Shown here piece after piece: positions 7,311 to 59,200 of a stretch of 64,000 nucleotides of DNA. Position 1 is the first letter of the stretch, and each line of letters begins with the position of its first letter. Under the pieces are notes generated by a model. The model was not told the DNA's origin, searched no databases, and saw nothing but the letters and a program-made list of their open reading frames with translations. The position numbers and the translations under genes were made by a program. This DNA is from Raillietiella orientalis (Eukaryota), in contig JAYWIR010000076.1 in the NCBI GenBank assembly GCA_036172245.1, positions 248,001 to 312,000 on the forward strand. Direction: 5' to 3'.

Positions 7311-7359
7311 ACCATCCCGTCCCCCATTGACGGACGCACAGAAATTCCGGTTGCTTATT

Positions 7360-14491: not shown

Positions 14492-17040
14492 ACCAAATCC
14501 TTTCGGGGTACGGTCCATGGGGAACTGCTGGCAGAACTCTCGGACCGAGACTTTCAAATCGTATCAGTAGTCGAGCGTCTGCAGGCTGAAACCTCGCAAG
14601 AACGCGCGGAGGTGTTCCGCTGCGCCTGGCTTCGTCAGCCAGTCCCCCGTTAAACGTCACGCCTGCGAGGGGGGCCCCCTGTCGCGCGGGCGAATGACGA
14701 ATTTCACACGGGAATGATCGGAGACAGCGAACTGTAGCCTACCTCTCCTGCTTACGCAACAGCGCAGGAGATCGTCGAGGAAGACGTGGTCCACGCTGCG
14801 CTCTATCCCGGCGTCCCCGGCCAACAAGTTGGATGCGTGGCGCACATCTTGTTAACCGGGGTGGCCTCTGTATTTGCCGCACCGGATAGCAGGCGAATAC
14901 TAAAATCGCCGGCTATCAGGTGCGCGGTGCGCGCGCCTGCCTCCGATAGCCAGTCGCGCTGGAACGCACGGAAGAATGCCGTCTGTGCAACGCGCGCGTG
15001 ACCGCCGCTCGGAGCGTACACGTTCGTGACGACGAGATCGATCGAGCCGGACCACCTGAAGGTGATTTGCCCGAACCGACCTGTCTCATCCAAACGAACT
15101 TTCCTCACCGAACGTTGCAAGGCAGGCTTTAGAAGGAAAGCGACTCCGCGCGTACGGCGTTGGCCGCATCGCCACATTAGTTGACCACCTGCTATCCTCT
15201 CGATCTCACGCGCATGTTCTGCGGAGATCTTTTGGATCTCCTGCAGCAGCACAAGGTCGAAGGCTTGTAATGTGGCAGCCATGTCTCGTCTCCTGCCGTC
15301 ATCGCAAAGCCCGTTGACGTTCCAACTGGCGATGCGGATTTGACGGCAGGTGGCGAGTCCCGGCATTACTGCTGGGAACGTGATGCGGCGTCTCCCGCCT
15401 CCCAATCGGGCTGGATGCTTTCTTGCTCGTCTGCAGTGGGGGGCGCCTCGACGACACTCTTCGCTTGCATGGGCTGTCTCGACCGGGCTTGGGAGTTCAG
15501 GATTCGTGTCCATTCCTCCTACGCTCGCCGCACCTTCGTTTTCGGAAGATTCCCGCTCCTTGGAGGAAGCGATCCTCCTCGGGTTACGGATTTTCCGTCC
15601 GGTCTTCAATGGGGTTGCAGACACGGATGGTTCGTGTCCGGCCTCCGGGTCCGAGTCCGAGGTCCCGGTCCCCCTCCTTTCGGCCGGACGTCGAGCGGCC
15701 TTCTTCTCTCCAATTGCGGGTGATTGCGGAACGGCGGAGGCGAGCTCGACGGAGGCTTTCGCAAAGTCCGCGTCAACGCGGCTTTCCCCCTCGCCGCAGG
15801 CCTCGGCTGCTGTTCGCACAGCGACGGGGCTGTCGGCGTTGTTGCACAAGGCAACAGCCTGTTCGCATGTCACTTCGGAGTCTGTGAGGCGCTCCAGTGC
15901 GATCGTGCGTTTTTTCAGTCCCTGCTTTTTCGCGGGTGTCGCGGGTTTTGCAGGGACTTTATTCTTCTTTTTTGAGTTCCCTTTTTTGTAGCTGACCTTT
16001 TGCCAGTTTGGCTCTTCTCCTTCCGCCCCGGTCGCCTACGTTTCCGCAGACGGGGTGTTCGGCACGGTCTTTTCGGCTGGCTCCGGGTCAACCTGGTTTT
16101 CGGAGGTTGGCCAGGGCTTGCCAGGTTTCTTTTCATTCGCGTTCGTGCCACTCATGGCAGCAGCCAGCGCGCGCGAAGTCTTTTTCGGGCACATTTCTTT
16201 CGTGTGCCCGGTTGCCTTGCACTTGCGGCAGGTGATGTTGGGGCAATGTTTGTTCACGTGTCCCGTAGCATCACAGAACGCGCAGTATTTGGGTTTACCC
16301 AGATACCAGATGTCGACAGTATTTTCGTCGACAACCAGTTTGTGGGGAATCTTCACGTCCTTGGCAACCGTGATGCGCGCAGCAGCGAGCCCGCTTAGAA
16401 GTCCGTCATAAGTACGGAGTCTGTTGGGCTTCGCCCACAGTGCGCGCACGGTGCCGAATTTGCTGAATTCAGCCTTGACGGCACTCGGGTGCATCCATAG
16501 GGTGATTCCGCGGAGGTAAACAACTATTGAGTTGTCCACCGGGACAGGGAAGATCTGGCGGCCTTCTATCCTAACGGGGGTTCGCAGCAGACTTTGCGCC
16601 AACCCTGCTTCTTTGCAGGTCAGCTCGAAATGCTGCCCCCCGCTGCGGATGGAGAGAATCAACAGATCCTCCTTGTTGACGTTTGAACGGTGCAGCTCCT
16701 GCTCAAAGGAGCGCGCCACACGATCATCGAATACCCGGCCTACCTTAAACAGCAGGCTAGGATTGCAATTATAGGCCTTTTAGGCCTGGGCCTCGGCCAT
16801 GGCAGATGGCGCTGCGACCACGGCGCTGTAGTCCCTCGCTGGAGCGGGGGATGAAGCTTTAGGGGCTAGTGCCCTTACCTCCATGGTGACGTGTGACGCT
16901 CGACCGTGGCCCCCCCACGTTCCCTGGTAACGGGATCAGGCATTTCTGCCATCCTCCAACCACTGAATCACCGCACCACACCAATGAAAACGAAGCGAGT
17001 CAGGAGCGCGCATAGAACACGTCCGACCGACAGCACTACG
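14492..17040 (-). mobile_element. C-family LINE, 5' half (5' UTR, ORF1, endonuclease), truncated by the 3' end of A1
   Basis: CGGACGTGTT at 17016-17025. ORF1 from ATG 16952 with CAFCDATGHVNKHC / CRKCKATGHTKEMC. TAATG at 15364-15368. ORF2 has WNVNGL, LQE, TNVYAP, AGDFS, VDHVF and SDH. Confidence 0.88.
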
Positions 17041-27549: not shown

Positions 27550-27960
27550 AAGCCAGCAAGGCTCATCACTCTTACAAAGGGAAAAACGGATAAAATAAAA
27601 CAAGAGCAAAATGGCAAACCATAACAATAAAAACAAACCCAAATGTGATTATTTGGGGGAAGGGAAGGGATAACATTTCGCGTTGGGTGAAACTTCTGCA
27701 TCAGTTAAGGGATTTGGGAGAGCTTCTCTTGCTCCGTTTCCACTTGGAACTACCTAGAATATATCTACAGTAAGAGGGTGGCGTGAAGGGCAAACCCCTT
27801 TCGCATCGTCATTCCTCGGTGTCGCACTTTGTCGCGGCGAACCGACACAAAGTACACGCGGCTGCCGCTGAAAAAAATGCTCACTATTGCGCAGTGCCAG
27901 CTAAAGCGCAGACATGGCATGGCATATGTGCGCTTTAGCTGGTCTGCAATCGCAAGTGCC
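27550..27960 (-). mobile_element. Highly decayed A'-like LINE 3' end
   Basis: AAGGGAAGGGATAACA preceded by an A-rich tract resembles 5340-5400. Weak similarity continues upstream. Confidence 0.4.
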
Positions 27961-28439
27961 TTCGAAGCTCGCGGCAGCTTTCTTCGAACGCTCTTATTAT
28001 AAGCGTTCGAAGAAAGCTGCCGCGAAAGATGCGCCACTGGAGCCCTAGGCCAGGACCACATCCGAGAGCGCGCGAATAACACCAAAAAGGTCGAGAAAAA
28101 TGGCCAGAAATCTCTATGGCAGCTGGTAACCTCCAGAAAAGAAAAAAAATAAGCGCTTGCACAACATCCGAGAAAATTAAATGCTGTATCCTTGTGGTTT
28201 TTATCCCGTTTGCGCCGGAACGTCTATTAAAATAAAATTATCTGGGAACATAGTTCTCAGGCAAGGGAAATTGGAATTCAGGGGTGGCGGTTCCTGATAC
28301 AGGATCTTGCATTCTGAGAGATCGAAACAGGAGGAAATGGACAATATATAAATTAAAATAGAGAGGCAGTCAGGGGTAAAGGTCTTTAGCTTATACCGCA
28401 TGCAGGAGATCTTCGTTCTCATTTGGTCGTTGATTTGTG

Positions 28440-32589: not shown

Positions 32590-33584
32590 CATGGTAGGAA
32601 GAATTAAAACAAAAAACAAACAAAAGGGGAGATGTAGAGAGGGCTCGAAGTTTTTTAAGGGAAAAGAGGCGAGGATGGGATCACATTGCGCGTGAATTGG
32701 TCCTCTAGATCCTATTTAGGATCCTATCGAGCTGAGTCCCGTTCACACCCAGGTGGGAATATCTGGAGAGCTTCGTTGCGAATATTCGCGTCCACTGTGT
32801 GGCATCCCTGCCATTCGTGCTTCATCAACACACTTTCCATGCTGCCACGATTCCGCGTATGCAGTACAGCACTGCTGAGGAAACGGCCGGGGCAAGAAGG
32901 CACAGGAGAAGAGTCGCCGGAAAATGTACCTAAGTGTACCTCCGTCAATGTTCAGGGTCGCAGCAAGACGATCCCAGAGGGGGCGGAGGCCGACGCATTC
33001 AACAAGAAGCAGAAGGGAGGCCTTCTTCTATCCGCACTGTGCACAAAAGTCACCCACACTCCGACGAGTTCAGTGGGGCAGCACCGTTGCCAGTGGTGTC
33101 GTCTCCGCCCAAGTGCTTCTGGCGGGACACATGTTCATGTTCCTCAGCGTGCAGCGGGTGTAGATGCCGGTACGCAGGAGGTTGCAGGATTCTCCACTGA
33201 TCTTGTTTAACTTTGTCTACGTTCCAACTGTTTCTACCAGCCATGGGCTGAAGTTGGCGGGGCTGCAGGCCTTCCATCCGTTCTCCGTTGCCAGGGTGAC
33301 CATGCGTCCCAGGAGAAGTCTGCATCTTCATATTTTTCTGCCGGGGCACAGAAAAAAAGATGCGAGTCCTTCAATCCCGGACACACGTCTGGCGAGAAAT
33401 CAAGCCGGAACGCACCAAGGGGTGTTCCACATCTTCGCTGCGATGGCTAGAGTACGCCACCGCATCTGTGTTTCCACGAGCTCCATCGTCAGCACGCTAA
33501 GACCTCCGTCCCGAAGTGAAGCGCACAAGTACTTTAAAGGCACACGAGGCCTGCCGCCTCCCTACAGGGCGATACATAGTAGGT
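32590..33584 (-). pseudogene. Decayed A-like ORF2 C-terminal fragment plus 3' UTR; host of D
   Basis: Minus strand reads LLCIAL*GGGRPRVPLKYLCASLRDGGL..PANFSPWLVETVGT, homologous to A3 at about 58200-58570. Confidence 0.75.
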
Positions 33585-34929
33585 TTTTCACCCGGGTGAG
33601 CCGGGGCTTTTATTACTAAAATTTTTCAATTACAAAAAATTTCATAATATAGTCATATTTCGTCAATAAAGTTTTCTTCAGTCTAGAAACGTTGCCAGAC
33701 TGTCTTGAAGCACTTATCCTTACCGACCCGAAGGCCGATAAGGTCCTCTACACTGGCGAAGGGGCGGGGAACAACAAAAATAAACAAAAAAAAGGAAAAC
33801 GCCTGGGGGGGGCAATGTTCTTCGGGAGGAAGAGGGAAGGGAAGGAATCACGGTACGCCGTGAGGAGGCCTCTGCATCCGGTCACGGATGCGCACGAGTG
33901 CCTGTAAGGGTTTTCCAAGTCGGCGCCAACGGCAGGCCTTCTCCAAGGAGATGGTTGCCCAGTGGATGGCGTTCCGACTGGCATGTCCTCTCCTTAACGC
34001 GGACCACTTGTCCAGTATTCCGCGTATGCAACAGAGCACTGCTACACACCCGGAAGCTGACATGGCGTCCCGCATCAGGAGTCGAAAAATGTTCTTCGTG
34101 TCGCCCCGCGGAATGTTCAAGATCGACGAGAGTCGGTCCAACATATCGCAAAGGGCAACGCACTCAATGATCAAGTGAGGAAAGGTTTCTCTTTCCTTAC
34201 TTTCCGTCGCAGGTGTTGCGGCGTCTTCAGGCATTTCTGGCTTCGAACGGCCGCACTTCCACACACGAAAACTTCCTCCTAGGTTACGCTCTCGCGAGCT
34301 CACCAAAAACGCGTGCGACCACGGCGAAGGTGGGCCGCATTTCAATTCACGGGGTATGGGGCAAACAAAAAGCAGGGGGTGAAGGAGGAGGGATGCGAAC
34401 GCGTTTTACACCGAAGCCCGCTCTGCCAAGTAGAGCTTGCCTTTCAGGATCGCCAGCGATGCTTCTTGGAGACGGTCGGACCAGGCTTCTGCGGCGCAGA
34501 AAATCCCCAGCGGTACGCCAAGGTACTTGATGCACCTGCCCGTGGTGATCCAGAAACGGATACAGTCCGACCGTGGAGCCCACGCTAAGTCCACGAAAAT
34601 TATACACCACTACACCTTCTCACTTCCAGGCTCGTCTCGCGGCGGAACTTGAAGAAATACTCGAACGCGCACGCCGGGTGGACCCGGGGAGCAGCAGCAG
34701 AGGATCGTCTGCCTAGGCCGACACGGCAGACGTGCCGGGGTACGAGCTCGGCAGGATAGACAGAGTATCCCTGTATGCACTCAGCACCAGCTCAAAATAG
34801 ATGCTGAATAGCAAGGGACTCAACCCGGTTCACTGGTCAACAAACTAAAGTTGTGCGCAACCGTGCACACCTTGATGACCAGGACTCTCTCGTGATTCGG
34901 CCCATCTGGTTCAAGGCGAACGTTGAAAT
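33585..34929 (-). mobile_element. D-family LINE 3' remnant with internal deletions, starting exactly at the GDFN codons
   Basis: From 34929 the minus strand reads (D)FNVRLEPDGPNHERVLVIKVCTVAHNFSLLTSEPG, then SPLLFSIYFELVL, KYLGVP and ETFPHLIIEC. 3' end AATAAAAGCCCCGGCTCACCCGGGTGAAAAA. Confidence 0.8.
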
Positions 34930-37900
34930 TTTTCTTACCGGGTCACGCCGGGACGTTTATTGATAAAAACTATCTGGAAAACAAATGTTTCTAGACAACG
35001 ACTGCAAAAACTAAAAACGTAGATTAACCACTGGCACGCTGGCCAGGTAAACTAAAGCACCTGAACGAATGGGGGAAAAGGGGACTACAAACAAAAAAGA
35101 ACAGTCTAAATGGGAGGAATGGGGCAAAGAACTTTGGTGACGCTTCGCAGTCAACAAAAAAAACAGAGCGGAAGCACCAAAGCACAACAGAGCGAATGAA
35201 AGGAGGGATGAGACAACAAAAATACAGTTTGAAGGAAATGAAGGTGGATCACGGGGTTGGTCGTTTGGAACCGTTGAGCATCCGGCGATGAATGCCAGTT
35301 AGCTCCTCCGTTGCGTTTTCACTCAAGTGTCGCCACTGAGCTGCAGCCTTGATTTAGCCAGCAGCATTCCTGCTGACACAACATTGCAGTCCAGTGTTCA
35401 CCAGCACGTCTCGGATTGTGACGATGGCGCGGATGCAACCAAGACTGTCGAAATCAACGCAGCCGTCGAAAGTCCTCGCGGTTGGAGGAACCGTCGCAGC
35501 ACTTCTTGAGCAGTGTCCCCCAGTGCATGGAGAGCTGCTGCACACCTCCGCCAGAGTTCCTGGAGGACACCGCAGTCCATAACAATGTGTCAGAACGACT
35601 CCTTCGCGGGGAAAAGTAGGGTACAGCCAGCCCAACGGCAGCTCGTTGGTGCCGCTCGTTGTAGCGCAAGCGCTAGTGCAAGAAGAGCGAGACGTCTTCC
35701 TTTCATACAAGGGAAAACACTGAACCGTCCAAACACCAGGGAGAGATTATAAGCTCCTCGGTAGAAACACCAAGAGCATCTCCCCAACGAAGTAACCCCT
35801 TTGGTGTAGCACGAAGAGTGGCGTCATCCGCAAGCTCGCTCGTGGCCCATTGGCAAATTAGTTTGGTTCTTTCTGCAATGATGCAGGAGAACTCCTACCT
35901 TACAGGCTGACTACTGTCATTTCCAACCTTGAGGGTAGACAGCTTCGGCAAGGGGCGTGGCGGCCAAGGAGGGAAACTTCACCTCGTCCTCCATGACATC
36001 TTGAAGGGACCAAGTTTGGAATCCACGCAGGGGGCGAAGATCTTCACAGCTCATTCCTAAGAATGCACCCAAAGAATCCATGGATTCCTGCCGCCATGCA
36101 TTATAGTTCATTGGGCAGCAGGAAATCCAGGTATTGGCTTTCAAGAGGGTGGCGATTTACCTCAACGGATAGCCAAACTCCTGTTTCTTGTGCCGCAAGA
36201 CTGGCACCTAGGAAAGAAGTCCTTCACTGCCTGCACACCTCCTTAGGAGGATGCGCACAGGCGCACACAGGGGAGAGTACATAGATCGGCACACAGTGAG
36301 AGCATTCGGAACTGCACTTCCAGTCCGATTCTCTCCATTGTAAGAAGGCCAAGGCCAGCATCCGGAAGTGGAGCAGTGAGGTATTTCAGACGGATCCTTG
36401 ATCGCGGCCTACCGCTGAGAGCGTTCCTTAACAGGGGTTTGCCCCCTTTTTGGCCGCGTAATACGGGTCCAAGATTAATAAAAAGGGTCGAATGAGGGGG
36501 GCCACGAAGGTGTTTCAAATAGCCACAAGTTCCAGAACGGTGAAATTGCCGTTAATGAATGGGCTGGCGACCAACTCTGCCTTAGGAAGGCAGTCCGACC
36601 ACGCCTCGGCAGCGCCCAGGTCGCTCAACGGAACGCAAAGGTACCTGAAGTACCCTGCCCTAAGGATCCCCATGTGGATCCATTCGGACTGCTTCCTTCA
36701 CGACGCTCCTACAGAAACGACCCCGCTCTTTTTCTTGCTTACCCTCGAAGTTCGAAGAAATCTTCAAAACTGGACGTCGGGGTGATCAAGTGGAGCAGAA
36801 TCAGCAGCTCAAATGCATAGACAGTCACTGCAGGTGTTCATGGGCAAGAGCTAAGCAGGTATTCCAGCATCAGCCTGTAAGCCCTCAGCAACAACTCAAA
36901 GAAGATGATTAAGAGCAACGAGCTCCAGCTGTCAACCTGCATGATGCCCCTCCGCACGGGAATAACGTACACGTGACAGCCGCTGAAACAAATGCAAATT
37001 AGCGCGTGAAGCCAGCATGCGCGCAGGTACTTCAGGAGTTGCACCGGGAGACCCAGGCGTTTGAAAAGCTCTAATAGGAGTCCTTGGTTCACGCAATCGA
37101 ACGCCTTGTGCTGGTCGACTGCGACCGCCAAGGCACCCATAGTACCCTCCTGCCGTTTCTGTCGATACCGTGTGCCTTTGGCGGCGGCCTTGGACATGGA
37201 TAGGCTTTGCTGCGCTACGCGTTCCTGCAGCAGCATATAGGTGCGGGCAAACAGCAGGTTCGCGTCCATGGACCGCCTGAAAACACAGTAAGTCTGCTCC
37301 GGGCTTAGCAAGGACTGTGCGATCCTCCCTATCCGCGCAACCCACATGTTGGAGAACAGCTTGACGTCCGAGTTCATCAGGGTGACCGGACTCCAGTTGC
37401 TTAGACGGCGTCCCTCTCCACCTTTTGGCTGGGGACGCACCCACGCTGACTGGAAGGAATTGGGGAAATCCTCGGAATCCCTCATTAACGACGAGAGGCG
37501 AGGCACCAGGGGGACGAGCTTGCCCGCGAAGCACTGTTTGAACTCCGTGGGCAGCCCATTCGCCTGGCGCTTTTCGTTCTTGAGCTTCGCGATGGCGGAG
37601 GAACTTTCCTTCGCCGTGAAGGACTCGTCGAGACGTGAGCGTTCCTCTTCGCTAACAACAGGAGCATCCTGAGACAGAAGTATCTCCGATAAGATATTCA
37701 TCGTAGGCGCTTCCGCGTATACCGAGGAGTAGATACTTTTTAATATGCGGCGAATACCGGATGGTGTCGAGAACTCTAAATCTTTTTTGTCGAGTGAGCA
37801 AGATGCTGCATATTCCCAGTCTTGGCGTTCGGCTCTCCCCTTCTATTCCGCAAGCCGGTTGATATCAGCTAGTCTGGAAAAGGTGCTCGCCTGCAGGAAA

Positions 37901-37938
37901 GTCCCGCTGTTGGCGACCTCTGCTCCGCAGCCCACGGA
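34930..37938 (-). mobile_element. Divergent B-type LINE (copy B4), ORF2 3' two-thirds, truncated by A2
   Basis: ORF 36838-37701 has ILSEILLSQDA..LLQERVAQQS..VAVDQHKAFDCVNQ. 3' end AATAAACGTCCCGGCGTGACCCGGTAAGAAAA abuts ATTTCAACG. Confidence 0.85.
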
Positions 37939-44500: not shown

Positions 44501-46849
44501 TTTTCGAAGCTGAGGGTGACGCGCCTAAGGAAGATCGCGAGGTCCGTGGTAAGCCCGGAGCAGTCTTACGCTGTACTAAGAAGATCCATGGATGCGAACA
44601 TTCTTTTGGCTCGCATTTGGTGGCAGCTGCAACAGCGCGTTGCGGAGGACAGCCGAACAGCGGCTTGACCTTCTGCTGAGTGCGAGCGCCAGTGCGGACG
44701 GACGGGTGGAAGGCCGGGAGCTTCAGCAGTAGGAGTAGATTTGCATAAAGCAATCGACTGCTTCAACTAGGAACTACCCTTGGAGCTCCTTGAGCGTCGT
44801 GAGTTTCCGAATCAACATCTCCTGTACTTGCGCTCCTGCTGGCGCCACGCGCTCATCCAACTGCATTACAGTGGAACCCGCGTGTACGGTGTGGCCGTGC
44901 GCAGAGGCATAAGACAGGGCGACAGATTAAGCCCGTTGCTCTTCAGCGTCTACTCTGAGTTGGTGCTGAAAGCATACAGGCTGACGCTGGCCGTCCTGGC
45001 CAGCGCCATTCCGTGCACTCCGTTTGCTGCAGCATACGCCGACGACCTTCTGCTTCTGTGGCCCATGTCCACTCCGCCGGACTCGGTCGAAGACTTCTTC
45101 GAGTTGATCCGTCGTGGAGCGGGCATGAGCGTTAACAAGGAAGAGTGCTCCGTCGTGCCGGTGGGTGCGTCGTGGGAGGAGCAGGCCGACTGGATCCGCC
45201 TGGGGATCCCCACGGTCAGGTACTTCAAATACCTTGGCGTTTCGTTGGGCGACTTCTGCTCGTCTGAAGCGTGGTCGGCCTATCTTTAGAAGGCAGAGAT
45301 GGCTCTAGGCCCGTTCCTGGAAGGCAAGTTCGTCTTCCCGAAAGGTCGTGCCTATGGAACATTTTTCTTGCCCCCCTCCTTCGACCCTTATTTTTTGTAT
45401 GTTCGCCTCCTCATGTGATTAAACTCCGGACGCAGCGTGTCCTACGTAAGGACTTGTGGAGCGCTCCACGATCCAGGGTTCGACTTAAAGATTTGGTGGA
45501 GCCATGCCAGGACGCAAGCTTGGGCATTCTGACCATCGAGAAGATTGGACTGCAAGTGCAGCTCCGGCTTCTATCCCTATGTGGGAAATTGTGGTTTAGT
45601 CACTGGTGTGCTCCGGCTCGCCATATCCTCCAGCGTTGTGTGGGCAGTGCAGGACTGCTGTCGTTGCTGCCGCGCAACCTGTGCCGCAGAACTGGGTTTG
45701 GCTACCCACTCAGGTATCTGTCCTCGTTGTTAGCCCATTCCTGGATTTCCTGCCGCCCCTCCAGCTGGAATCCTTGGCAGCAGGAAGCTCTGGAGCACTG
45801 GACTTCCACTTTATTTGTTCGTCCAGAGCAACTGCGGCTTCTAAAGGGCCTCTTACGCAAACCGCTAGGAGTGATCCTACAGGACTGGTCGCTTTGGTCC
45901 CGGGCAGCCGTCTCTCCCATCGCCGCAGCGCTGTCTGCTCTCAGGGCAAACAACGACAGTAGCCAACCGGAAAGGTGGGAGTTCTTCTGCAGCATTGCAG
46001 GAGTGGAAAGACTGCTGAGCGGCTGCAATACAAGCGTGTTGGTAGAAGCTGCCACCTCTCGTTACCCGGCAAAGAGACTCCTTTGGTGGAGTGAGGCTGT
46101 TGGATTACTCCCCGAAGATCTCGTGGTCCCTTCCTTGTGCGTGGACACCTATGTGTTTCCGCTCCGATGGAAACAGGATATTCTGCTTTTCCTGCACTGT
46201 GGATCTCAGTGAAATAAGCGCAGACACTTGGTTTCCTGGGAAGTCGCCTCCCCGAACTGCCTCAGGTGCGGGGCGATAGAATCGCTTACGCACTTGCTCC
46301 TTGAGTGCAGTGACTTGCGGAAGTTATTGCGGAGACTTGCTTTGGCACTTCGTCGTCCCTAGTACATAGTCATCGGCCTGCTGCGATGCTTCTTCAGCGA
46401 AGACGGACTGGATAAAGGCGCTGTGATCGAAACAATCTGTTGCATCCGCGCCATCGTAGCGGCGCTCCGTAAGCTAGAAGGAAGCTCGCAGCGAATATAC
46501 GCCGCCAGGATAGCCGAAAACCTTATGAAGGTAGTTGTCAGGTGGCCTCATCTGCCAAGAAAAGTCTCCACGGAAGTCGTCATCGTCAGACAGCGCTTCT
46601 AGGAAGATGAGAAACGTTTAATACCAAAGATCCCTGACCCCATTCTCCACTGTTTTTCTGTTTGTTCTCTCATGTTTTCTTTATTTTGTACCCCACTCCC
46701 TCCATTCCTTTCTTTTAGAAGGCGGCCTGTGTGCCGGTGATTCGTCCGGGCTGAACTTTCTGTATGGGCCTTTCGTGTGTCTTAAAAGGATGAATCTCAT
46801 TTCAAGATTGTGGTTTGTTTTTACAAATAAACGTCCCGGCGCGACCGGG
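41528..46849 (+). mobile_element. B'-family LINE (copy B5), slightly 5'-truncated and decayed; central endonuclease region deleted
   Basis: ORF1 remnant with CSECGQDGHRLTKC. TAATG at 43503. ORF2 has WNLNGL, LQE, KTPGEDG, GIRQGD and AYADD, to a stop at about 46602. 3' end AATAAACGTCCCGGCGCGACCGGG. Confidence 0.88.
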
Positions 46850-46856
46850 TTCAATC

Positions 46857-47926
46857 CGCATTAGCGTTGTTCGCGTACAGACCTGCTTTTGCGTCGCTCC
46901 GCGTTAGGCTCACTCTTGTGTGTTTTGGTTCTCCTGTGCTTCTGCTGGTACCTCCTCCTGAGATGCCGGTTTCGGCTGCTAGCTAGGAGCCACTGTCCTC
47001 GTCGACGGCAAGGACCTTCGCCCAGGTCGCTTCCTTTGCGGCTACAATGGTACCTTCGTCCGACAGCCCTGAGCTGCAGGCGTATGTAGCAGATGGCTAC
47101 ACGCCTGCACTCAGGTATAAGGTAAGTGTCCTTATGCGTGAGCGAACTGGGCGCGAGTTTGGCCAAGAACTCCAACGAATTGCAGTTCAGAGAGGCCAGC
47201 TGGAGTCCACCATGCCCATGAGTGGATGCGGCTACTGGGAGATGTCCAGTAAGGACGCTCTTCTTCCGCAGCGTTTTCTGCACACGCCGCTGCTCATTCG
47301 TAGGCAGGACATACTTTTCATCACAGCGGACCAGTCGTTCGTTGTCCGGCTGAGTGGAGTGAGCAAGGGCCTTTCGGACCTCCAGGTCTTGAAGGCCCTT
47401 GAAAAACTCGCCACCGTTCACGCGCTTTTGAGTTTGCCAAACCCTGCTAAGGGTTCCGACGACCATCACAGCGGGCTCGCGCAGGTGCGATTGACGATGG
47501 CGGATCGGTGGGCAATGCTCACGCGACTGCAGGTGGATGAAATGACCATCCGCCTGTATTTTGAGGGGCAAACGCTTGTGTGCATGGAATGCGGGCAGGA
47601 GGTTCACCGCCTTACGAAGTGTCCTTCCGCTCTTGTTGTCACCGCCATGAGTCCAGTCACACAAAAAGAGCGTGCCCGGAGCTCTTTTGAAAAGAAAAGC
47701 GCAAGAACGAAGCGCGTATTGCATCGCAAAATAAACGCCGCGAATCGAGAGAAAAACCTCAAAACTTAGGAGAGCGTTGCGAAAACCGCAAGCGCGCATC
47801 TGCAGAACACTGTTATTCTTTTCCACAGAAAAGGGAGGAAAACATAAGAAAACGCTTCGCGGCGAAGCCTCAGGCTACCGAGGCGACGGAAGCTGGCGAA
47901 GAATGCGAACTTTCACCAAACCTCGG
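46857..47926 (+). mobile_element. B'-family LINE (copy B6): 5' UTR plus ORF1 N-half, directly downstream of B5 and truncated by A3
   Basis: ATG at 46963 (early TAG) in frame with ORF 47047-47769, which is colinear with B5 ORF1 (41563-42440). Confidence 0.85.
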
Positions 47927-48019
47927 TTAAGACGGACGTGTTCTTCCTTGGCTACCGAGTGATTCGAAAGGAAGACGCTTTTTTAGTGGTTTATTAGTGT
48001 GAAACATCGTTGACATCCG

Positions 48020-49898: not shown

Positions 49899-50357
49899 CA
49901 CCTGGGCTCGCCAGTCGCCGTCGGATTCGCGCGGCCTGTTGGAACGTCAACGGGCTGCGCGACGACGGCAACAGGCGAGATACAGCCGACACCCTGCGTG
50001 AGCTCGACCTGGCGCTGCTGCAGGAGATCCACGTGATCACCGCGGCAGACGCCCAGGAGATCGAGACGATCGCGGGGGGTCGGCTGTATTGGCGATGCGG
50101 CCTCCGCAACACCTGCGGGGTCGCGTTCTTCGTGAAGCCGGCCATCGACGCTGCCGTGAAGGGCGTGCGGTTTGATGACGACGGTCGGATTGGTCAGCTG
50201 ATTCTCAGCTGGTCCGACTCGATCGACCTAATCGTCACAAACGTGTATGGCCCCAGCGGCAAACAGGGGTACCGCCACCGCACCAGGCTGCTGGAAACCC
50301 TGAAGCGCGACTGGCTGGCGGATACCAATGTGCGAAAGGCTCACCTGATAGCGGGTG

Positions 50358-50366
50358 ATTTCAATC
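50358..50366 (+). repeat. Target-site duplication ATTTCAATC (second copy at 56274-56282)
   Basis: Identical 9-mer on both sides of B2. Removing B2 restores GCG GGT GAT TTC AAT CTC CGC CTG = AGDFNLRL. Confidence 0.9.
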
Positions 50367-50371
50367 GAGTG

Positions 50372-50381
50372 CGGACGTGTT
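50372..50381 (+). promoter_or_regulatory. Shared 5'-terminal motif CGGACGTGTT, putative internal promoter (representative copy)
   Basis: Found within about 30 bp of the 5' end at 1413, 37942, 47933, 50372 and 17016-17025(-). Variants at 1073(-), 8940(-) and 46878. Function is inferred. Confidence 0.55.
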
Positions 50382-50444
50382 TTTCTTCGCTCTCGTCTCC
50401 GTGCTTTCATCCGCTTCATCTTGGCGTCGTACATTTTGACGACG

Positions 50445-52361
50445 ATGTCGACCCAACTTGAAGCTACTGAAGTTGGAGGAACAGCATCCGGATATGCAAT
50501 CGCGGAACCGACGGCCGCCTCCACTTCGTCTTTCTCGCCAATGCAGAGGAGTTTTGCTGACGTTGCTGCCACAGCAGCCGTCAAAGGGAAACCACTCGAC
50601 GAGTCGGAGTTGCGGGCATACGTAGCCCAAGGCTATAGACCTGCTCTCCGATATAAGGTGAGTGGTTTTCTTTCTGCGCGCGACGGGAATCAGTTCAACG
50701 ATGAACTGACGCGTGTTGGCGTGCGGGAGGAGGACCTCCTCGCCATTATGCCCGTAAAAGACATGGGCTATTTCAAGGTGCGTTGCAAAGACGCTGCACT
50801 TGTGCAACGCTTGCTGCGCACCCCGTTGTCGATCCGTGGCCAGAAGGTCTTCCCGGCCGCCATGGACGACTCATTTGTGGCGGAGATTTTCGACATCGAG
50901 TCGGAAGTCTCCGATACTGATATTCGGAACGCGTTGGCGAAATTCGCCACGGTCCATGCGCTGTGGAGGGTGCGTAGCAACCTCAAGGACTTCCCGTCCA
51001 TACACAGCGGAGTCGCTGGAGTCCGGCTTACAATGCCGGACCGCAGTCTGCTGCCTACCAAACTACAGGTGAATGACACGGTCGTTCACCTGTGGTTCGT
51101 GGGCAAAGTAAAAACGTGCGAGCAATGCGGGAACGAGGGGCATTGTTTTGATAAATGCCCCTCTGGAAAATGCCGTTATTGCAAACTATCCGGGCACCAA
51201 TTGAAAAATTGCCCGGATCTTTTGCGAAAAAAGGCAGCCGCGGAGCTCCATCCTAGAAAACAAAGCGCGGATAAAAAGAAAAAATCTGCGAAAAACCTGG
51301 AGACCCCACGGCAGAAATTCGGTAAAAACGCGAGGCGGAATGTCGCCCCAAAGCAACAGGAAACCTCGAACGCGAAGCCCTGCGCACCCCCTCTCGCGGC
51401 AGGGGAGCCGCAAAAGGAAGGGTGCGGGGAATCCGGGGCAATGGTAAGTCCCCCTAGGCGCAATAGCTGTCCTAACCTAGCACACCCGGCTCTCTCGGAG
51501 TTCGAGCAGCCGGCGAAGAAGCCAATGGACAACGGCGGTAAGGACACTTCCAGTACCGTCAAATCCATTCCTTCACCTCCTGCAGTGGCTGAGAAGCCCA
51601 AATCGGGTAAGAAGGGTTGTGCCGTGTCGACTTCGAAAGTCGGCAAAAAAAAATCCGCGTCGCTATCCAACACCGCGAAAGCGGAGAAAAATCTCACGCC
51701 GTCGCAGTCGGAGAGCAAGCTCTCGACTGGCGCGGATGCCATGCCAACGAAGGGATTAAAAGCCCTTCCGAAAGCAGCGTCCATGACGAGCGTGTCGGAG
51801 CTATCGAAAGTGCTCCCGTCCAAAGACGCGGATGGCTTCAAAGATGGCCATGGAGCACAATCTCCATTTACGGCGCCACGCGAAGTGACGAACCGTAATG
51901 AAGTAAAGAAGACTTCAGCAAACGTCCCTCGTGCAACTGCGCGTGAGCACGCTGAAAACGCGCGCGCCGGGAAAGCAGCCGTCACCAAAAGCGATGCTCT
52001 GGTGACGGAAAACGAAAACAGGACAGCTGTCAATCCAGCAGAACCTGTCACTGCTTCGCGGAAGGCCGAAACCCGATCAAACATGCGCCGGTCGGACTCC
52101 GAAATGGATGCCGTTCCGATCACCGAGACGAGGACAACTCGTTCGAAAGCGTGTGCGCGCCGATCAAAAGTAGGCAGCCAGGCAACGCTCGCCGCGAAGC
52201 CACGCGAAGTCTCCACGAAACCCGACGGGGTTAAGCCTGGCGTGGAGGCATTACATGCATGCAGCACGACAGAGGACGGTGGCGACCGTCCCCTCCAGCC
52301 AGTCGTGCTGCTCGCCGTCTGCTCGCCGGATAAAGCGAGCAAAAAGCCGCCACCTTCTTAG
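50445..52361 (+). CDS. LINE ORF1 gag-like nucleic-acid-binding protein (638 aa), intact
   Basis: Open frame from ATG 50445. CEQCGNEGHCFDKC and CRYCKLSGHQLKNC (CX2CX4HX4C) knuckles. Long basic low-complexity C-terminus. Confidence 0.9.
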   Translation: MSTQLEATEVGGTASGYAIAEPTAASTSSFSPMQRSFADVAATAAVKGKPLDESELRAYVAQGYRPALRYKVSGFLSARDGNQFNDELTRVGVREEDLLAIMPVKDMGYFKVRCKDAALVQRLLRTPLSIRGQKVFPAAMDDSFVAEIFDIESEVSDTDIRNALAKFATVHALWRVRSNLKDFPSIHSGVAGVRLTMPDRSLLPTKLQVNDTVVHLWFVGKVKTCEQCGNEGHCFDKCPSGKCRYCKLSGHQLKNCPDLLRKKAAAELHPRKQSADKKKKSAKNLETPRQKFGKNARRNVAPKQQETSNAKPCAPPLAAGEPQKEGCGESGAMVSPPRRNSCPNLAHPALSEFEQPAKKPMDNGGKDTSSTVKSIPSPPAVAEKPKSGKKGCAVSTSKVGKKKSASLSNTAKAEKNLTPSQSESKLSTGADAMPTKGLKALPKAASMTSVSELSKVLPSKDADGFKDGHGAQSPFTAPREVTNRNEVKKTSANVPRATAREHAENARAGKAAVTKSDALVTENENRTAVNPAEPVTASRKAETRSNMRRSDSEMDAVPITETRTTRSKACARRSKVGSQATLAAKPREVSTKPDGVKPGVEALHACSTTEDGGDRPLQPVVLLAVCSPDKASKKPPPS

Positions 52362-52366
52362 CAGTA

Positions 52367-55300
52367 ATGCGGGGAATCGCGTCTTCTCGTCGTCTGTCCG
52401 TAACGTGTTGGAACGTGAACGGACTGCAGAACGACGAGAAGAGGCGATTAGTAGCCAACGCCCTGCGCCCCTTCGACCTCGCGCTCCTGCAGGAGATTCA
52501 CGTAATCTCCGACGAGCCGACAGCCGAAATCGAGGAGCGCGCAGGCGGAACGCTACATTGGCGGTGCGGCGGCGCACACACGTGCGGCGTCGCGTTCCTC
52601 GTAAGAGGAAAAATGGCGGAAGCGGTGCGTAGTGTTCGTTTCGATGACAACGGACGGATAGGCCAGCTTGTCATCAAGTGGTCCGAGTCCATCGATCTCG
52701 TCGTTACGAACGTCTACGCGCCGAGTGGCTCTCGCTACCTCGAAGAAAGAGTAGCTTCCTTTGGTGAGGTGCAGAGCCAGTGGCTCAACAACTTCGGCTT
52801 CCAAGTGGCGCACCTCGTCGCTGGGGACTTCAACGTCCGCCTGCTCTCCGACGATTGGAGCCGCCCGAGGGAGCGCGCGCTGCCCATCGAGATGTGCGCG
52901 TCCGGGCACGCCGCCAACTTGATGGTCAGCGAACCAGGAATGGAAAGATCGCTCGTTCACGTTTTCCTCGATGAAAACCTGCATTCGCGTGTGGGTAGGA
53001 GAGGAAGATTGTTGACTGAGCTTTCTGACCACCACAGGTTGGAGTTTGAGATCCTTCCGCCAGGCAGGGGGCCTCCGTTGCAAAGCTGGAGGATGCAGGA
53101 GGATTGGCTTAGCCAACCGGAGGCTGCGGAGCATCTACGTGGATACCTCCGGGGCTTTGCCATTCAAGAACTTGCGGACTGGGACGATCTCAAAAGATCT
53201 GTCCGCGAGTTCTGTTGCCAATTCCCCTTGCACCGGCTTCCACGCGGTTTCGGAGAGGGCGTGGCCAACAGTAGAGACTGTCTGCAGGCCCGCACGTTTT
53301 CGAGACGCGCGGATGTCGGGCGTCTCGCAGAGTACAAGGCGAGGGCCGAGCGCCAGGTCTGGCAGTCCGGAGCAGCATGCCTGTTGGACGACAAGGGCCA
53401 GAAATGTTAAGCTCCAGCCGAAGTACGCCACATTGTGAGACGCTACTACACCTCTTTGTACGCGGAATCCCCGACGGAGGATATTCTTTCTGAGATACTC
53501 CTGTCTCAGGATGCTCGTGTTGTCGGCGAGGAGGAACGCGAACGTCTCAACGAGCCCTTCACGGCGGATGAATTTTCGTCCGCCATCGCTGGGCTGAAGA
53601 GACGAAAGGCGCCAGGCGAGGATGGGCTCCCTGCAGAGTTTTATCAGTGCTTTGCTATGGAGCTCATTCCCTTGATGCTTAAACTCGCGACGCTGATGAG
53701 TGGATCCGGGAATGTCCCTGATTCCTTCCGCTCAGCAAAGGTGCGTCTCCTGCCGAAAGGCGGAGACTTGCGCCAACTTAACAACTGGCGTCCGATCACC
53801 TTGGTGAATTCGGACGTCAAGTTGTTTTCCAAGCTGTGGGTCGCGCGGTTAGGAAGAATCGCGGAATCTGTGGTGAGCCCGGAACAAACCTACGCGGGTC
53901 CGGGACGATCCATGGAGGCGAACATCCTTTTCGCGCGTACATGGATGCAGCTGCAGGAAGTTGTGACGCAGCAAAGCCAGGCTGCTGCGAAAGTCACTGC
54001 CGCAGGCAAAAAGAACAGGCGCCGACGGCAGGAGGGAACGCCAGGTGCCTTGGTTGTCGCCGTCGATCTCCACAAGGCGTTCGACTGCGTAAACCAGAAG
54101 CTGCTTTTGGAGCTTATGGAACGCCTTGGGTTCCCGGGGCTACTCCTGCTGTATTTGCGCGCGTGCTGGCGCCACGCGCTAACCTGCATCACTTTTAGCG
54201 GCTGCCGCGTGTATGGTATTCCCGTTCGTAGGGGCATCCGACAGGGCGACAGCTTAAGCCCGTTGCTCTTCAGCATCTTCTTTGAGTTGGTGCTAAGAGC
54301 ATACAGGCTGATGCTGTCTCACTTGCCAAGCTCCTGCCCGGGAACGCCTGCCGTGGCCGCCTACGCTGATGACCTGCTTCTTCTGCTCCCCATGTCCACC
54401 CCGGCGTCCAGTGTCGAGGATTTCCTCGACCTGATTCGTCGGGGAGCGGGCGTGAGCGTGAACAGAGAGAAGAGCGTGGTCGTTCCTGTGGGTACGTCGT
54501 GGGAGGGGCAGTCCGACTGGATCCGCCTGGGGATCCCCACGGGCGGGTACTTTAAGTACCTTGGCGTTCCGTTGGGCGCTTTCGGCGCAGCCGAAGCGTG
54601 CGCGGACTGTCTTCAGAAAGCAGAGTTGGCCATCAGCCCGCTCTTTAACGGCAAGTTTACCTTGCAGGAACGGGCGACTATTTGGAACACCTTTGTGGCC
54701 CCCCTCCTCCGTCCCCTGTTTTTTGTTTTGAACCCCCCCTATGCGGCAAAACAGCGGGCTAAGCGCCTGCTTAGGAACGCTCTCTGAGGTCCGGCGAGAT
54801 CCAGGAGATGCCTTAAAGATTTGTCAGCTCCGCGTCGGGATGCTGGTTTGGGTATCCTGACAATGGAGCGAATCGGACTGCAGGTGAAGTTCCGACTGCT
54901 GGCACTGTGTGCCCAGCTATGGACATCCCCCCTGTGTGTGCCAGCCCGTATTCTCCTGCGGAGATGCGCCGGCAGCAAAGGATTTCTCTCGCTTTTGCCG
55001 GGCACTCAATACAGGAAGCGGGGTTTCGGTTTTCCATTGCGGCAGTTGACCGCACTTCTGGAAGCACACTCTTGGATCTCCTGCCGCCCAATGAACTTCG
55101 AAGCTTGGCGGCAGGAGTCTGTTGAATCCTGGGCGGCGTTCCAAGGAATACGCTTTGAAGATCTTCGCCCCCTGTGTCAATTTTTTCCACGATCCTTGGA
55201 AGAAGTACTGCAGGCCGAGGTGAAGTGTTCTACCCTGGCTGCCACGCCTCTTGCCGCAGCGCTGTCTGCCCTCTGGGCAAGAAACGATAGTTACCAACCG

Positions 55301-55960
55301 GCGAGGTGGGAGGTTTCCTGCACGATAGCGGGAAAAACCAAACTCCTTGGCGCCTGGAAGACGAGTGAGTTGGCGGACGCCGCCACTCCTCGTGTTACTG
55401 CAAAGAAACTCCTCCGGTGGGCAGAACAACTTGCTGTCACCCCCGAAGAACTTGTAGTCCCTCCACAGTGTATTGACTGTTCGCTGCTTCCCCTTGCTTG
55501 GAAACAAGCCGTGCTGCTTTTCGTTCACTGGGGTTTTCAGTGCAACGAGCGTTGGCATCGTGACTCCGGGGGACTTGCGTCTGCGAACTGCGTTCTGTGC
55601 GGATCGACGGAGTGGATTCCGCACCTACTTCTGGACTGCGGTGTCCTACAAGGACTGTGGCGTAGGCTGGCAACAGCACTATTGCATCCCGTGGACACCG
55701 CAAGAGACTTGCTGCGACGATTCTTCACGCCGAGCGGGCTTTCACTAAGCGCAAGGATTGCAACCATCGGTTGCATACGCGCGATAGTTTCCGTCCGCCA
55801 GGCGTTGGTAATCAACGGACAGCACCAAGAGGTAATCAGCAAAGCATCCTTCTACATGGGAGCATCCGCTAGATGGCCTCATCTGACAGAGGAGACAAAG
55901 AGGAATCTCGCCGCAATACACCGCCGGTTTACACACCCTCATCAGCGGCCAACCCGGTGA
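52367..55960 (+). pseudogene. B2 ORF2 (APE endonuclease, RT, CCHC finger; about 1197 codons) with two in-frame stops
   Basis: Three ORF-track pieces in one frame, with stops ending at 53410 and 54787. Motifs WNVNGL, LQE, NVYAP, GDFN, SDH, DLHKAFD, GIRQGD and YADD. Confidence 0.93.
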
Positions 55961-56243
55961 TCATTGCCCTACCCTCCATAAACTAAATTTGTATTTTCTT
56001 TTTACACCCGCGTCCCCATAGGCTCCGGAACATTTTAGGTGCTCATCGTATAAATCCCCGTGAGTACGGAGCCTAACCAAAAACCCGTTACCCTTCCCTC
56101 CAGTTTTTGATTTTTGTTTTTTTCCCCTCATTCCCCCCACGCTGCGAGCGGTTTGTTTACCAGGCCTGCGTGCCGGTAATTTTTCTATGTTCTCTGTCGT
56201 TCTCTTGGTTGGGGACATTGTCCCTGACCAGTTTATTATTATT

Positions 56244-56273
56244 AATAAACGCCCCGGCGTGACCGGGTGATAA
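56244..56273 (+). terminator. Poly(A) signal plus GC stem-loop at the LINE 3' terminus (representative copy)
   Basis: AATAAA-CGC-CCCGG-CGTGA-CCGGG-TGATAA. Equivalents at nine other element ends. Confidence 0.65.
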
Positions 56274-59200
56274 ATTTCAATCTCCGCCTGCTATCAGGTT
56301 AGCCGGAAACACAAGTGAACGCGATGAACGAGTTGTGCGCCGCCATGCGTGCGCGCAGCTTGTTCGCGGGTGAGAAAGGAATGGTCAGCAGCATCGACCA
56401 CGTCTTTCTGGACGCTGACCTGTGTTCACGCGTCGGCAAACGGGGGAGGGTTGTGTCGACGTTGTCGGACCATTCCCGGCTAATTTTCGAGATGCGGCCT
56501 CGCGACAAAGGACCGCCATCCAGGGATTGGCGTCTGCTGGGGGACTGGACGCGACTCTCAGGTGCGAAGGAACACCTTCGCGAATACCTGAGAGGCGTCA
56601 CGCTCCGGAATCTCTAGGACTGGGACCTTTTTGAGGAATCGGTCCGCGATTTCTGTGAGCAGTTCCCCCTGGATCGCCTGTTCCCCGGATTCGGCGAGTG
56701 TGCTCGCAACCATCGGGCCTATTTACAGGCTCGTAGGTACGAGTGAACCCCTAATGTCCGTCGCCTGGCCGAGTACCGCGCCGGGGCCGAACGCCAAGCC
56801 TGGCAATCCGGGTCGGCCAGCTTGCTGGAAGGCCAGGGCCGGGAATGTTCGTCCCCGGCGTCGGTACGGCATCTCGTGCGGAGTTTCTATTCCTCCCTTC
56901 ACGCCAGGGAGCCCCCGGATCGAAACGCCTCTCTATGCTTGCTTCCGGATGGCAATCCGGCAATAGGGGAGGAGGAGATGGAAAGCCTCGACGAGCCTTT
57001 CACCACCGGCGAAATTCTCGCCGTTATCAAAAGGCTCAAGAAACGTAAAGCTCCAGGGGAAGACGGCTTGCCCGCGGAGTTCTCTCAGAGCTTCGCGGAA
57101 GAGCTGCCACCCCTGCTGCTTAAGTTGATCAGGCTGATCCGAGACGAAGGCGATGTTCCCGCCTCGTTTCGGTCAGCCAGAGTGAGGCTCCTTCCGAAAG
57201 GGGGAGACCTCAGGAATTTAAAGAACTGGCGTCCGATCACAATCGTGAATACGGACGCCAAGTTGACAGCAGGGCTATGGGCTTCGCGTCTGGGGTAGGT
57301 GGCAGAATCCGTAATTAGCCCGGAGCAGACTTATGCTGTTCCCGGGCGAAGTATGGATGCCAACCTCTTCTTCGCAAGCACATGGGTGCACCTGCAGAGA
57401 AGGGAAAAGAAAGGGATAGGGAAAGTCGGCAACCCCACATTGGGGCTGCCATCCGGGCTGGGAAGGGACCCCCGGGCTGGGAAGGGGGCCCTAGCACTCG
57501 CAGTCGATCTCCACAAGGCGTTCGACTGTGTAGACCAGGAACTCCTCTTGGAGCTCCTGGGTCGCATGGGCTTCCCACCTTCCCTGAATTCCTACCTGCG
57601 CTCTTGCTGGCGGAATGCGATGATTACCGTCTGTTTCAGTGGACAGAAGGTGTATGGCGTGCCGGTGCGGCGGGGCATAAGGCAGGGCGATAGCCTCAGC
57701 CCCCTGCTCTTTAGCACCTACTTTGAGTTGGTGCTGAGAGCGTACAGGGTGACTTTGGCCCCCTTGCCGAGCTCGTGCCCCGGCACGCCCGCCGTAGCAG
57801 CGTACGCCGACGACCTTCTGCTGCTGTTACCTATGTCCACCCGGCGAAGGCGGTCGGAGACTTCTTCGATCTGCTCAGCCGTGGGACCGGACTGCAGGTC
57901 AACAGGGCGAAGTCGTCGGTGGTGCCAGTAGGTGCGGCGTGGGCAAAGCAGCAGGACTGGGTCCGTCTGGGGATCCCCACGGCGAGGTGTTTCAAGTACC
58001 TTGGTGTGCCGTTGGGGGACTACTCCCCTGCGGAATCGTGGTCCAACTGCCTCCAAAATGTCGAGACGGCGATCGGCCCGTTCCTGGAAGGCAAGTTTCA
58101 CTTGCCGGAACCCGTCGCGGTTTGGAACGCCTTCGCGGCCTCCATCCTCCGCCCCTTGCTTTTTGTTTGCCCCTTCACCGTGAAATCGAAGAAGAGGACG
58201 AAGGACCTCCTAAGGATCGCCCTTTGGGGAAGAGGGAGTCTCCGAGTCCCGTTGATGGACTTGTGTGTTCCGCGTTGGGATGACGGTCTCGGCCTCTTGA
58301 CGCTGGAGCGAGTGGAGACTCAGCTGCGATGGCGTATTCTGGCCATCGCAACGAAGTTATGGAGCACCCCTTGGTGCATTCAGGCCCGCCTCCTAGCCAG
58401 CCGTGTGTTTCGCTGCGATGGACTCGCATCTTTTCTTCTGCGCCCAGGCCAGAAGATAAGAAGATGCGGCCTACTGCTCGGGCGCATGGCAACATTGGTC
58501 AAGGAGAGCGTCTGGATGGCATGCAGCGCGCCAACTCCTCCGCATGGCTGGAGGAATCTGTTGGAACGTGGGCGAGGCTAAATGCCCAACGAGAAGAGAA
58601 CTACAACTGCCTGCTATTCTACAACCGTGCCCACTGCAGCCTGCGGACCTTCTTGCAATGTCCCGCCTGGTGCACGTGGGCCGAGACCACACTCCTAGCT
58701 ACGGCGATGCCCTCTCTGAGGAGGTCGCTCTCCAGCAGCCGCACGCCTAGGTGGCAAGTCTACTGCCGAATCGCAGGCAGAGTGAAGAAGTTAAGCGGCT
58801 GGACCACGGCGCAACTGGCCGATGCCACTACTCGAAGTGTCCTCCCCCGTAATTTAAAGAGATGGGGCGAGCTGCTCGGCATCCCGATGGATGACCTGAT
58901 GTGGCCCCCGGATTTTTTTGGATTGAGGATCCTCCCCCTGTAGTGGCAGGAGTCGGCGCTTCTGCTGTTGCATTGGGATCTACCCTGCAATGCACGCCGC
59001 CACCACTGGACGAGGGGTCGAGTAGATCCTGCCTGCATCAGGTGTGGGAAGCAAGAAACCCTCCCCCACCTTCTTGTTGATTGCGCTACCCTTCGACCCC
59101 TGTGGGAGCGTCTTGGTACCTCCCTACGGCTACAGGAGGCAGCCAGCCCAGAGACGTTTTTCGGCATCTTTTCGTGCTGGATGCCCTGTGACCAGCCGCC

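Follow-up and report, generated by a model that had tools for sequence, protein, structure and literature searches.

A probable target site for LINE insertion in the GDFN endonuclease codons of sister LINEs within a nested retrotransposon cluster

Target-specific long interspersed nuclear elements (LINEs) insert into ribosomal, small nuclear and transfer RNA genes, spliced-leader exons, telomeric repeats, simple repeats and one or more DNA transposons; the classic LINE with another transposon as its target is Tx1L, which resides in Tx1D, a DNA transposon of Xenopus. R1 and R2 of 28S ribosomal DNA use a precise site and form tandem copies around the target duplication. Conserved active-site codons, which are hard for a victim to change, are the residence of homing endonuclease genes, inteins and mobile introns. 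In the parts of the survey by Kojima & Jurka (2015, PMC4640811) used here, transposons appear among the known LINE targets, and Tx1 and R1 among the target-specific clades encoding an apurinic/apyrimidinic endonuclease (APE). Excerpts of several accounts describe Zepp and ZeppL as L1 elements that form nested clusters by targeting existing copies (PMC8226300, PMC3446292, bioRxiv 2022.06.16.496473, 2024.02.27.582245 and 2025.03.28.645958), and one of these excerpts (Blanc et al. 2012, PMC3446292) gives the nested Zepp clusters a higher G+C content than that of the genome. Here we analyze a 64-kb stretch of a Raillietiella orientalis contig (JAYWIR010000076.1, positions 248,001 to 312,000; in the following called the window), from which all evidence below is drawn, and within it the 3′ end of a degenerate LINE, B4, and the host sequence, H, that adjoins it.

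On the minus strand, within positions 34830..34965, B4 runs directly into host sequence encoding FNVRL, exactly as the original prediction had read it. We consider it likely that this 3′ junction is the fossil of an independent retrotransposition by which B4 entered, in the sense direction, sequence coding for the endonuclease of a sister element. The elements related to B4, called D clade below, are probably target-specific LINEs inserting through target-primed reverse transcription (TPRT) into the GDFN codons of sister elements. D1, D2 and D3 denote three copies of one D family, and A1, A2 and A3 their respective hosts; E10 and Y belong to a third D-related family, and E2, E3, E4, E9 and F are additional fragments.

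The DNA of the window is eukaryotic in character. Nested, related retrotransposons lacking long terminal repeats (non-LTR) make up almost all of 1–17 kb and 28–64 kb (self-blastn with 56 repeat pairs, and a tblastn map), two localized clusters of nested copies, such as Zepp also forms, with a G+C content of 52–60%. By their APE-type endonuclease and reverse transcriptase (RT), the elements with a second open reading frame (ORF2) of the D type are classified as non-LTR elements (LINEs) of the L1-like kind. The best-preserved ORF2, that of D3 (P0001, 1150 amino acids), matches RVT_1 with an E-value of 3.4e-20, and its N-terminus, which contains the GDFN motif, matches Exo_endo_phos with an E-value of 2e-4 (21.7 bits, slightly below the curated 24.5). 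PF13966 (zf-RVT), a C-terminal feature of plant-type L1 that is precomputed on most of the distant relatives, is not among the domains listed for P0001 at E ≤ 0.01. ORF1 appears to encode Cys-His knuckles, and the translations show Cys/His clusters. The database proteins nearest to the D ORF2 (38 at E ≤ 1e-10) are 21–34% identical and mostly bear RVT_1, Exo_endo_phos and zf-RVT, which indicates L1-like elements of an unsampled lineage; the ESM Atlas returned generic RT/APE clusters only, with no taxa. In maximum likelihood trees of ORF2 residues 400–1000, with four distant proteins as outgroup, an A clade comprised E2, A2, A1 and H (ultrafast bootstrap, UFBoot, 86) and the D clade D1–D3, B4, E10, E9 and E4 (UFBoot 70).

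The remnant of B4 ORF2 was recovered by tblastn with D2 ORF2 as four high-scoring segment pairs of 42–57% identity; 13 in-frame stops and no fewer than three frame changes interrupt it. Its protein is 54% identical to D and terminates in ...KRPTP before the stop codon, the D counterpart in ...QRPTR. B4 has a 3′ untranslated region (UTR) and tail of its own, as had been predicted: the 3′UTR of 327 nt is identical to that of D2 at 177 of 312 positions, and over the last 40 nt at 30 of 35 aligned positions. Its AATAAA is followed by CG, the hairpin TCCCGGCGTGACCCGGT (34953–34937) and the tail AAGAAAAA. The hairpin motif CCCGG-CGTGA-CCCGG (34952–34938) has five matches in the window against 1.13 expected. 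This terminal block is conserved among D1, D2, D3, B4 and E10, and element-type homology stops at the tail.

Ends of this kind were marked throughout the window with the pattern AATAAACGYCCCGG, allowing up to two mismatches, which gave 12 matches against 0.64 expected. Eleven were examined, the one at 47730 being excluded as judged chance. The match at 27470 has neither hairpin nor tail, and the other ten have AATAAA, a short inverted repeat and 0–8 A-rich bases. D-clade 3′ ends have the hairpin CCCGGCGYGACCSGGT with the tail, and AATAAACG is a candidate marker of 3′ ends. A consensus fold of nine 3′ ends (60251, the duplicate of the D2 end, was left out) yielded a weak hairpin of six pairs (−1.8 kcal/mol, two pairs compensated), which supports no more than a conserved inverted repeat.

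The B4 tail ends at 34929; TTTCAAC follows at 34928 and then GTTCGCCTTGAACCAGAT (joined sequence TTTCAACGTTCGCC). Translated from 34927, H reads FNVRLEPDGPNHERVLVIKVCTVAHNFSLLTSEPG up to a stop at 34823. In a tblastn search of all six frames of the window, the three best non-self matches of this 35-amino-acid piece were the post-GDFN stretches of D3, D2 and D1, end to end (E-values 1.6e-5, 1.6e-5 and 3.8e-4), in line with the prediction that the flank is endonuclease sequence following GD(FN). The BLOSUM62 local score against D is 69, reached by none of 20,000 shuffles. Without FNVRL it is 58 (again 0/20,000), and without both FNVRL and SEPG it is 36 (26/20,000). Against the A hosts, the scores are 34, 29 and 22, reached by 1, 16 and 273 of 2000 shuffles, respectively. 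The description of the host as "non-A" therefore stood for this D-like piece but not for the two RT pieces that follow it, which are of A-clade type. The second of these is 0.51–0.53 identical to A1/A2 and 0.32–0.38 to D at the amino acid level; between them lies F, which also carries a 3′UTR, a hairpin and GAAAAA. By these comparisons, the host of B4 is not A1, A2 or A3. H would be either a third A-clade lineage or mosaic from which residues ~200–634 are deleted, or a set of pieces from two elements. The host 3′ end was sought beyond 31 kb to link the endonuclease and RT pieces, and that region is too decayed. An off-frame similarity of H to an RT stretch (E-value 0.005, 14 amino acids) was rejected since it scores 12–13 at the DNA level, under a null mean of 14.9, and since this RT stretch is already present in the host at 34603–34540.

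Both the nucleotide of the B4 junction (GA/TTTCAAY, cut after GA) and its orientation are those of D1 in A1 and of D2 in A2, a point on which the original prediction was correct. D2 is preserved with a 5′UTR of 79 nt, ORF1 (50445–52361), ORF2 (52334–55960, with two in-frame stops), 3′UTR, hairpin and GATAAA, and the flanking copies of TTTCAAT (50359–50365 and 56275–56281) constitute a 7-bp duplication. The host is read as ...GCGGGTGAT TTC AAT, D2, T TTC AAT CTC CGC CTG. The pair D3/A3 is an inverted duplicate of D2/A2, 0.93–0.97 identical on both sides of the junction, and the two were counted as one event. E3, an A-like relative with an uninterrupted site, reads GGC GAT TTT AGT ATT CGC CTG. 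Looking at the third D-related family, E10 ends in ...GACCGGGT with no A tail, and directly behind TCAAT begins Y, which has the 5′ motif common to six elements. E10 and Y are of the same family (41522–42448 is 83% identical to 47006–47925), and their arrangement matches the expected outcome of two insertions, one after the other, at a single target. An insertion of the A clade, E2, lies between perfect 14-bp duplication copies TCGAACGCCTTGTG, and D2 shows the corresponding empty site; therefore, the target starts directly after the A-rich tail. The duplications of E2 (14 bp) and D2 (7 bp), the truncation of B4 at residue ~305 and tails of 0–8 A-rich nucleotides are all features of TPRT.

In the window, T(T)TCAAY or a sequence differing from it by one base comes after all five D-clade 3′ ends (D1, D2, D3, B4 and E10, with D3 a duplicate of D2) and after none of the five other 3′ ends (A1, A2, E2, F and E4), and the three full-length D-clade 5′ ends (D1, D2 and Y) are all preceded by T(T)TCAAT. 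Four junctions, D1/A1, D2/A2, B4/H and E10/Y, share GA/T(T)TCAAY at the same nucleotide and in sense orientation. The endonuclease sites of A1, A2 and A3 are GATTTCAAY, that of A3 being a duplicate of the A2 site, and H shows the TTTCAAC part only; all four are occupied. Four variant sites are empty, namely the own sites of D2 and D3 (GGGGACTTCAAC), that of D1 (GGTACTTCAGC) and that of E3 (GATTTTAGT); set against GATTTCAAY, the variants include GACTTCAAC and TTTTAGT. We infer that the D clade (D, B4 and E10/Y) is specific for the GDFN site.

A weak nicking preference for a short motif, TTTCAAY or ..AAC.., used repeatedly at its few sites in a nest of almost wholly related elements and with the GDFN position being incidental, would be an alternative explanation. 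Such a preference exists in the superfamily, as A-clade 3′ ends at different places share a flank motif (GCAACACC, GCAACGCA and TCGAACGCC), and the events are few. However, of the 18 TTTCAAY sites in the window (21.8 expected), five are at junctions and 13 are unoccupied with unrelated flanks, some of the latter inside elements. All four occupied sites are in the endonuclease domain and in sense. With four such sites among 17 distinct TTTCAAY, the probability that four hits all fall there is ~0.003 by our own arithmetic. The heptamer alone is insufficient as a target, and we regard this explanation as unlikely. The pattern GGNGAYTTYAAY was not enriched in the window (8 against 6.9 expected).

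The other question is whether the junctions arose independently. One old insertion could have created an ancestral composite of element and host that was then duplicated or moved by read-through, with B4/H as the oldest of the diverging copies and no specificity involved. D2/A2 and D3/A3 are a duplicate of just this kind, and the divergence of B4 from D (amino acid identity 0.54) is about equal to that of H from A (0.51–0.59). The near-identity of the A-type 5′ flanks of copies 1 and 2 and the selection values, both discussed below, point the same way. Against it, the identity of D1 with D2 is 0.908 for ORF2 and 0.874 for the 3′UTR, whereas that of A1 with A2 drops at the junction to 0.756, then 0.733, with 0.695 in the host 3′UTR; therefore, the hosts (0.73–0.76) split long before the D copies arose. 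Within D ORF1, D1 and D2 have a middle part of 0.579 identity that is flanked by parts of 0.8–0.9. Moreover, the hosts branch as (A2,(A1,H)), H and A1 being paired at UFBoot 96 (FastTree 0.968), and the inserts as (B4,(D1,D2,D3)), B4 lying outside D1–D3 with a protein only 54% identical to D. A single co-diverging composite does not predict such incongruence, and the claim that a duplicated composite explains the B4 junction poorly was upheld. Finally, the E10/TCAAT/Y junction is devoid of any host endonuclease sequence and so is not a copy of a composite. This junction (46850–46856) and the divergence of the A1 and A2 hosts are arguments at least as strong as B4/H, which had been put forward as the best single one. 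Taken with these data, the composite is improbable.

A chimera without any insertion, whether by RT template switching, ectopic recombination of endonuclease stretches or assembly error, is very improbable: the region is rich in breakpoints, inversions and deletions and the host piece is 105 nt only before a frame-shifted RT piece, but the junction has the full architecture of validated insertions (hairpin, short A-rich tail and heptamer) at the same nucleotide as the junctions with a target-site duplication, for which the chance of a random breakpoint at that nucleotide and orientation is ~1/12,000 (6-kb host, two strands; our arithmetic).

Several observations weigh against independent, site-specific insertion by the D clade. 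Between copies 1 and 2, identity is 0.948 for the 300 nt of host upstream of the insertion and 1.00 for the D 5′UTR, well above that of the downstream host, so two simple independent insertions do not fit; a possible account of this identity would need recombination, gene conversion or a 5′ flank carried over in a co-transcript. The signal of selection, which by itself favors independence, is modest. The third codon position is the most diverged in each of the old pairs: identities at codon positions 1/2/3 are.67/.73/.51 for B4–D2,.73/.76/.56 for A1–A2 and.65–.67/.73–.75/.55 for H–A, and the ratios of nonsynonymous to synonymous substitution rates (dN/dS) are 0.32, 0.34 and 0.32–0.41, respectively, which is not far under the neutral-duplicate controls (0.54 for D2–D3 and 0.74 for A2–A3), and dS of the old pairs is near saturation. 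At the DNA level, the match of H to D is limited to the first 14 nt (13 of 14), its local score of 23 corresponding to the 99th percentile of random window pieces; therefore, the evidence for H is at the protein level. The alignment of the host segment that had been proposed as a check succeeded with the post-GDFN stretches of D in the window; with a profile of 12 distant L1-like ORF2s it gave one aligned column, a comparison that is uninformative because this stretch is too variable between distant families. B4 lacks its 5′ junction, cut as it is at residue ~305 against the inverted A-like element at 37939, so that neither a target-site duplication nor G-D codons are visible for this copy. 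Survival of the 3′ junction alone had been anticipated; the G-D codons expected in front of it were not confirmed, as nothing of them but the last Asp base, the T at 34928, could be present. Many breakpoints in the nest are not clean insertions, and the independent events number at least two and about four at most within one 64-kb window.

Table 1 Coordinates of elements, junctions and sites in the window.
Feature	Position	Strand	Details
Target-site copy TTTCAAC at the B4 3′ junction	34928–34922	−	Last Asp base plus Phe and Asn codons
H endonuclease piece, 35 codons after GD (FNVRL...SEPG)	34927→34823	−	tblastn, shuffles
Host RT piece, residues ~635–806	34841→34340	−	tblastn, A-clade; other frame than the H endonuclease piece
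F, short 5′-truncated element in host RT at residue 806/807	33575..34339	−	ORF2 residues 1093–1202
Continued host RT, residues 807–977	33597→33079	−	A-clade, by amino acid identity
B4 ORF2 remnant, 5′-truncated, D-clade L1-like	37932→35255	−	Residues ~305–1207 on the D2 scale
B4 3′UTR	34929..35254	−	AATAAA 34961–34956, hairpin, tail AAGAAAAA 34936–34929
D1	1407–5164 and 8974–11143	+	Two parts
D1/A1 3′ junction	11144..11150	+	CTTTAAT, mutated heptamer copy
D2, full-length, inside A2	50366..56274	+	Between two TTTCAAT copies
D2 own GDFN codons GGGGACTTCAAC, unoccupied	52823..52834	+	Likewise D3, 63674–63685 (−)
E3 uninterrupted paralogous (empty) site GGCGATTTTAGT (GDFS)	14899..14910	−	Single copy
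E10/Y junction	46835..46880	+	E10 3′ hairpin ending GGGT (46850), TCAAT 46851–46855, Y 5′ end from 46856
E2, A-clade, antisense in D1 RT motif ...DLHKAFD	5165–8959	−	Intact 5′ motif, internal deletion
Shared 5′ motif	975–1095 (−), 37942–37962 (+), 46876–46900 (+), 47933–47953 (+), 50372–50392 (+)		

Under the reading of D-clade elements as target-specific LINEs, their APE-type endonuclease would nick the bottom strand opposite GA/T, with GGTGATTTCAATCTCCGCC as a candidate substrate, and integration would proceed by TPRT at GA/TTTCAAY inside the Asp-Phe-Asn codons. A read-through RNA containing UUUCAAY... from an earlier host could anneal at a new target to its bottom strand once nicked, this sequence being similar between families because it encodes FN(V/L)RL. 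Insertion would split the victim endonuclease at its active site, and the new copy would land in harmless repeat-only DNA, by which the nest grows. The own site of D, GAC TTC AAC, has C for T at the junction and is unoccupied, which may protect D from itself. More tentatively, and with somewhat less than even confidence, D, B4 and E10/Y can be viewed as an obligate "homing" parasite of the sister clade, in which each insertion disables a competitor, the synonymous GAC provides self-protection, and escape of the target is difficult because the site encodes a catalytic motif. The parasite may also reuse the promoter and flanking homology of its victim, as suggested by the short 5′UTR of 79 nt and the near-identical upstream host flank.

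At the 5′ end of the D copies, 1093–1500 and 50051–50500 form a mosaic, in which the start of D ORF1 is 0.80 identical and a tract of high identity extends across the 5′ junction. Between the final bases of D (56253–56274, CCGGGTGAT-AAA) and the host sequence immediately before the insertion point (50351–50365, GCGGGTGAT-TTCAAT) there is a resemblance, which could be coincidence or a functional mimic. The starts of six elements from both clades have a 5′-terminal motif in common, (G/A)C(G/A)GAC(G/C)TG(T/C)TT.... E10 ORF2 is without residues ~109–262 (43795–43796, +), including its own GDFN site.

The A-clade 3′ ends have no A tail. That of A1 (14480–14500, +) is followed by GCAACACCAAA, antisense of the E3 codons GFGVA, that of A2 (59600–59625, +) by GCAACGCAAAG, antisense of the A3 codons SLCVA, and that of E2 by TCGAACGCC. 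The 5′ end of the A-like element at 37925–37945 (+) adjoins B4 in antisense, at a distance of ~24 nt from the Val-Ala codons homologous to these. A short target motif, ..AACRC, antisense in ORF2, may be particular to the A clade, and its preference seems to be for antisense GCAACRC.

Between the nests, 18000–28000 has a G+C content of 37–46%, contains no ORF longer than ~150 amino acids and is not similar to any of the elements; it is bordered by the E4 3′ end (28215–28228, −). The inverted duplication that contains D3 pairs 52508–56899 (+) with 64000–59609 (−) at 95.8% identity and a distance of 2.7 kb, and its inner boundary coincides with the A2 3′ end (~59610). A further fragment, E1, interrupts the endonuclease of A1 at residue ~65 in antisense and extends beyond the left edge of the window, and a 57-bp tandem repeat (49225–49412, +; 3.3 copies, 77% matches) is located between ORF1 and ORF2 of A2. 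Rfam gave no match at gathering scores over the whole window, and neither a ribozyme nor any other Rfam family was detected at the D 5′ end, where 50300–50700 returned one chance-level microRNA hit. A metagenome scan with the 25-nt 3′ motif found 0 loci; a scan for relatives of D3 ORF2 gave 12 candidate stretches, of which one passed, an uninformative 24-residue match (L001).

In the literature covered, with the original Zepp description (Higashiyama 1997) outside its scope, we found no LINE homing into the endonuclease motif of another LINE. The data support as new a target-specific LINE of a known type that has the catalytic-motif codons of sister LINEs as its target. If confirmed genome-wide, this would provide a nucleotide-level account of how nested LINE clusters grow without harm to genes, a case in which transposons compete with each other by way of a target that is "unescapable" in evolution, and a new APE-type endonuclease with a defined site of roughly 15 bp. 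If true, mutual clade-specific targeting would also be a sequence-level mechanism for the LINE-only nests of algal centromeres.

Among the described systems, the D clade resembles Tx1 and R1 in combining an APE endonuclease with an RT, in using one nucleotide of a repeated target in one orientation, and in its short target-site duplication and 5′ truncation, a likeness that is drawn from insertion features. Unlike for Tx1 and R1, the target is the GDFN codons of a sister LINE and not a DNA transposon, an RNA gene or a simple repeat. The tandem copies around the target duplication at E10/TCAAT/Y are like those of R1 and R2, and the D elements may share with R1 and R2 a dependence on host transcription and flanking homology, considering the 79-nt 5′UTR and the 0.948 identity of the upstream flank. 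In contrast to R1 and R2, the D target is a mobile element instead of a host gene, and the D 5′ end has no Rfam ribozyme. Like Zepp and ZeppL, as far as these are covered by the excerpts cited above, the elements in the window are L1-like and accumulate by insertion into existing copies; the same excerpts name no nucleotide-level site for Zepp and describe arrays mostly of 3′ ends, unlike the D nest. With homing endonuclease genes, inteins and mobile introns, the D clade has in common that the target encodes a catalytic motif of the victim; it differs from them in using TPRT without splicing, which leaves the victim inactivated.

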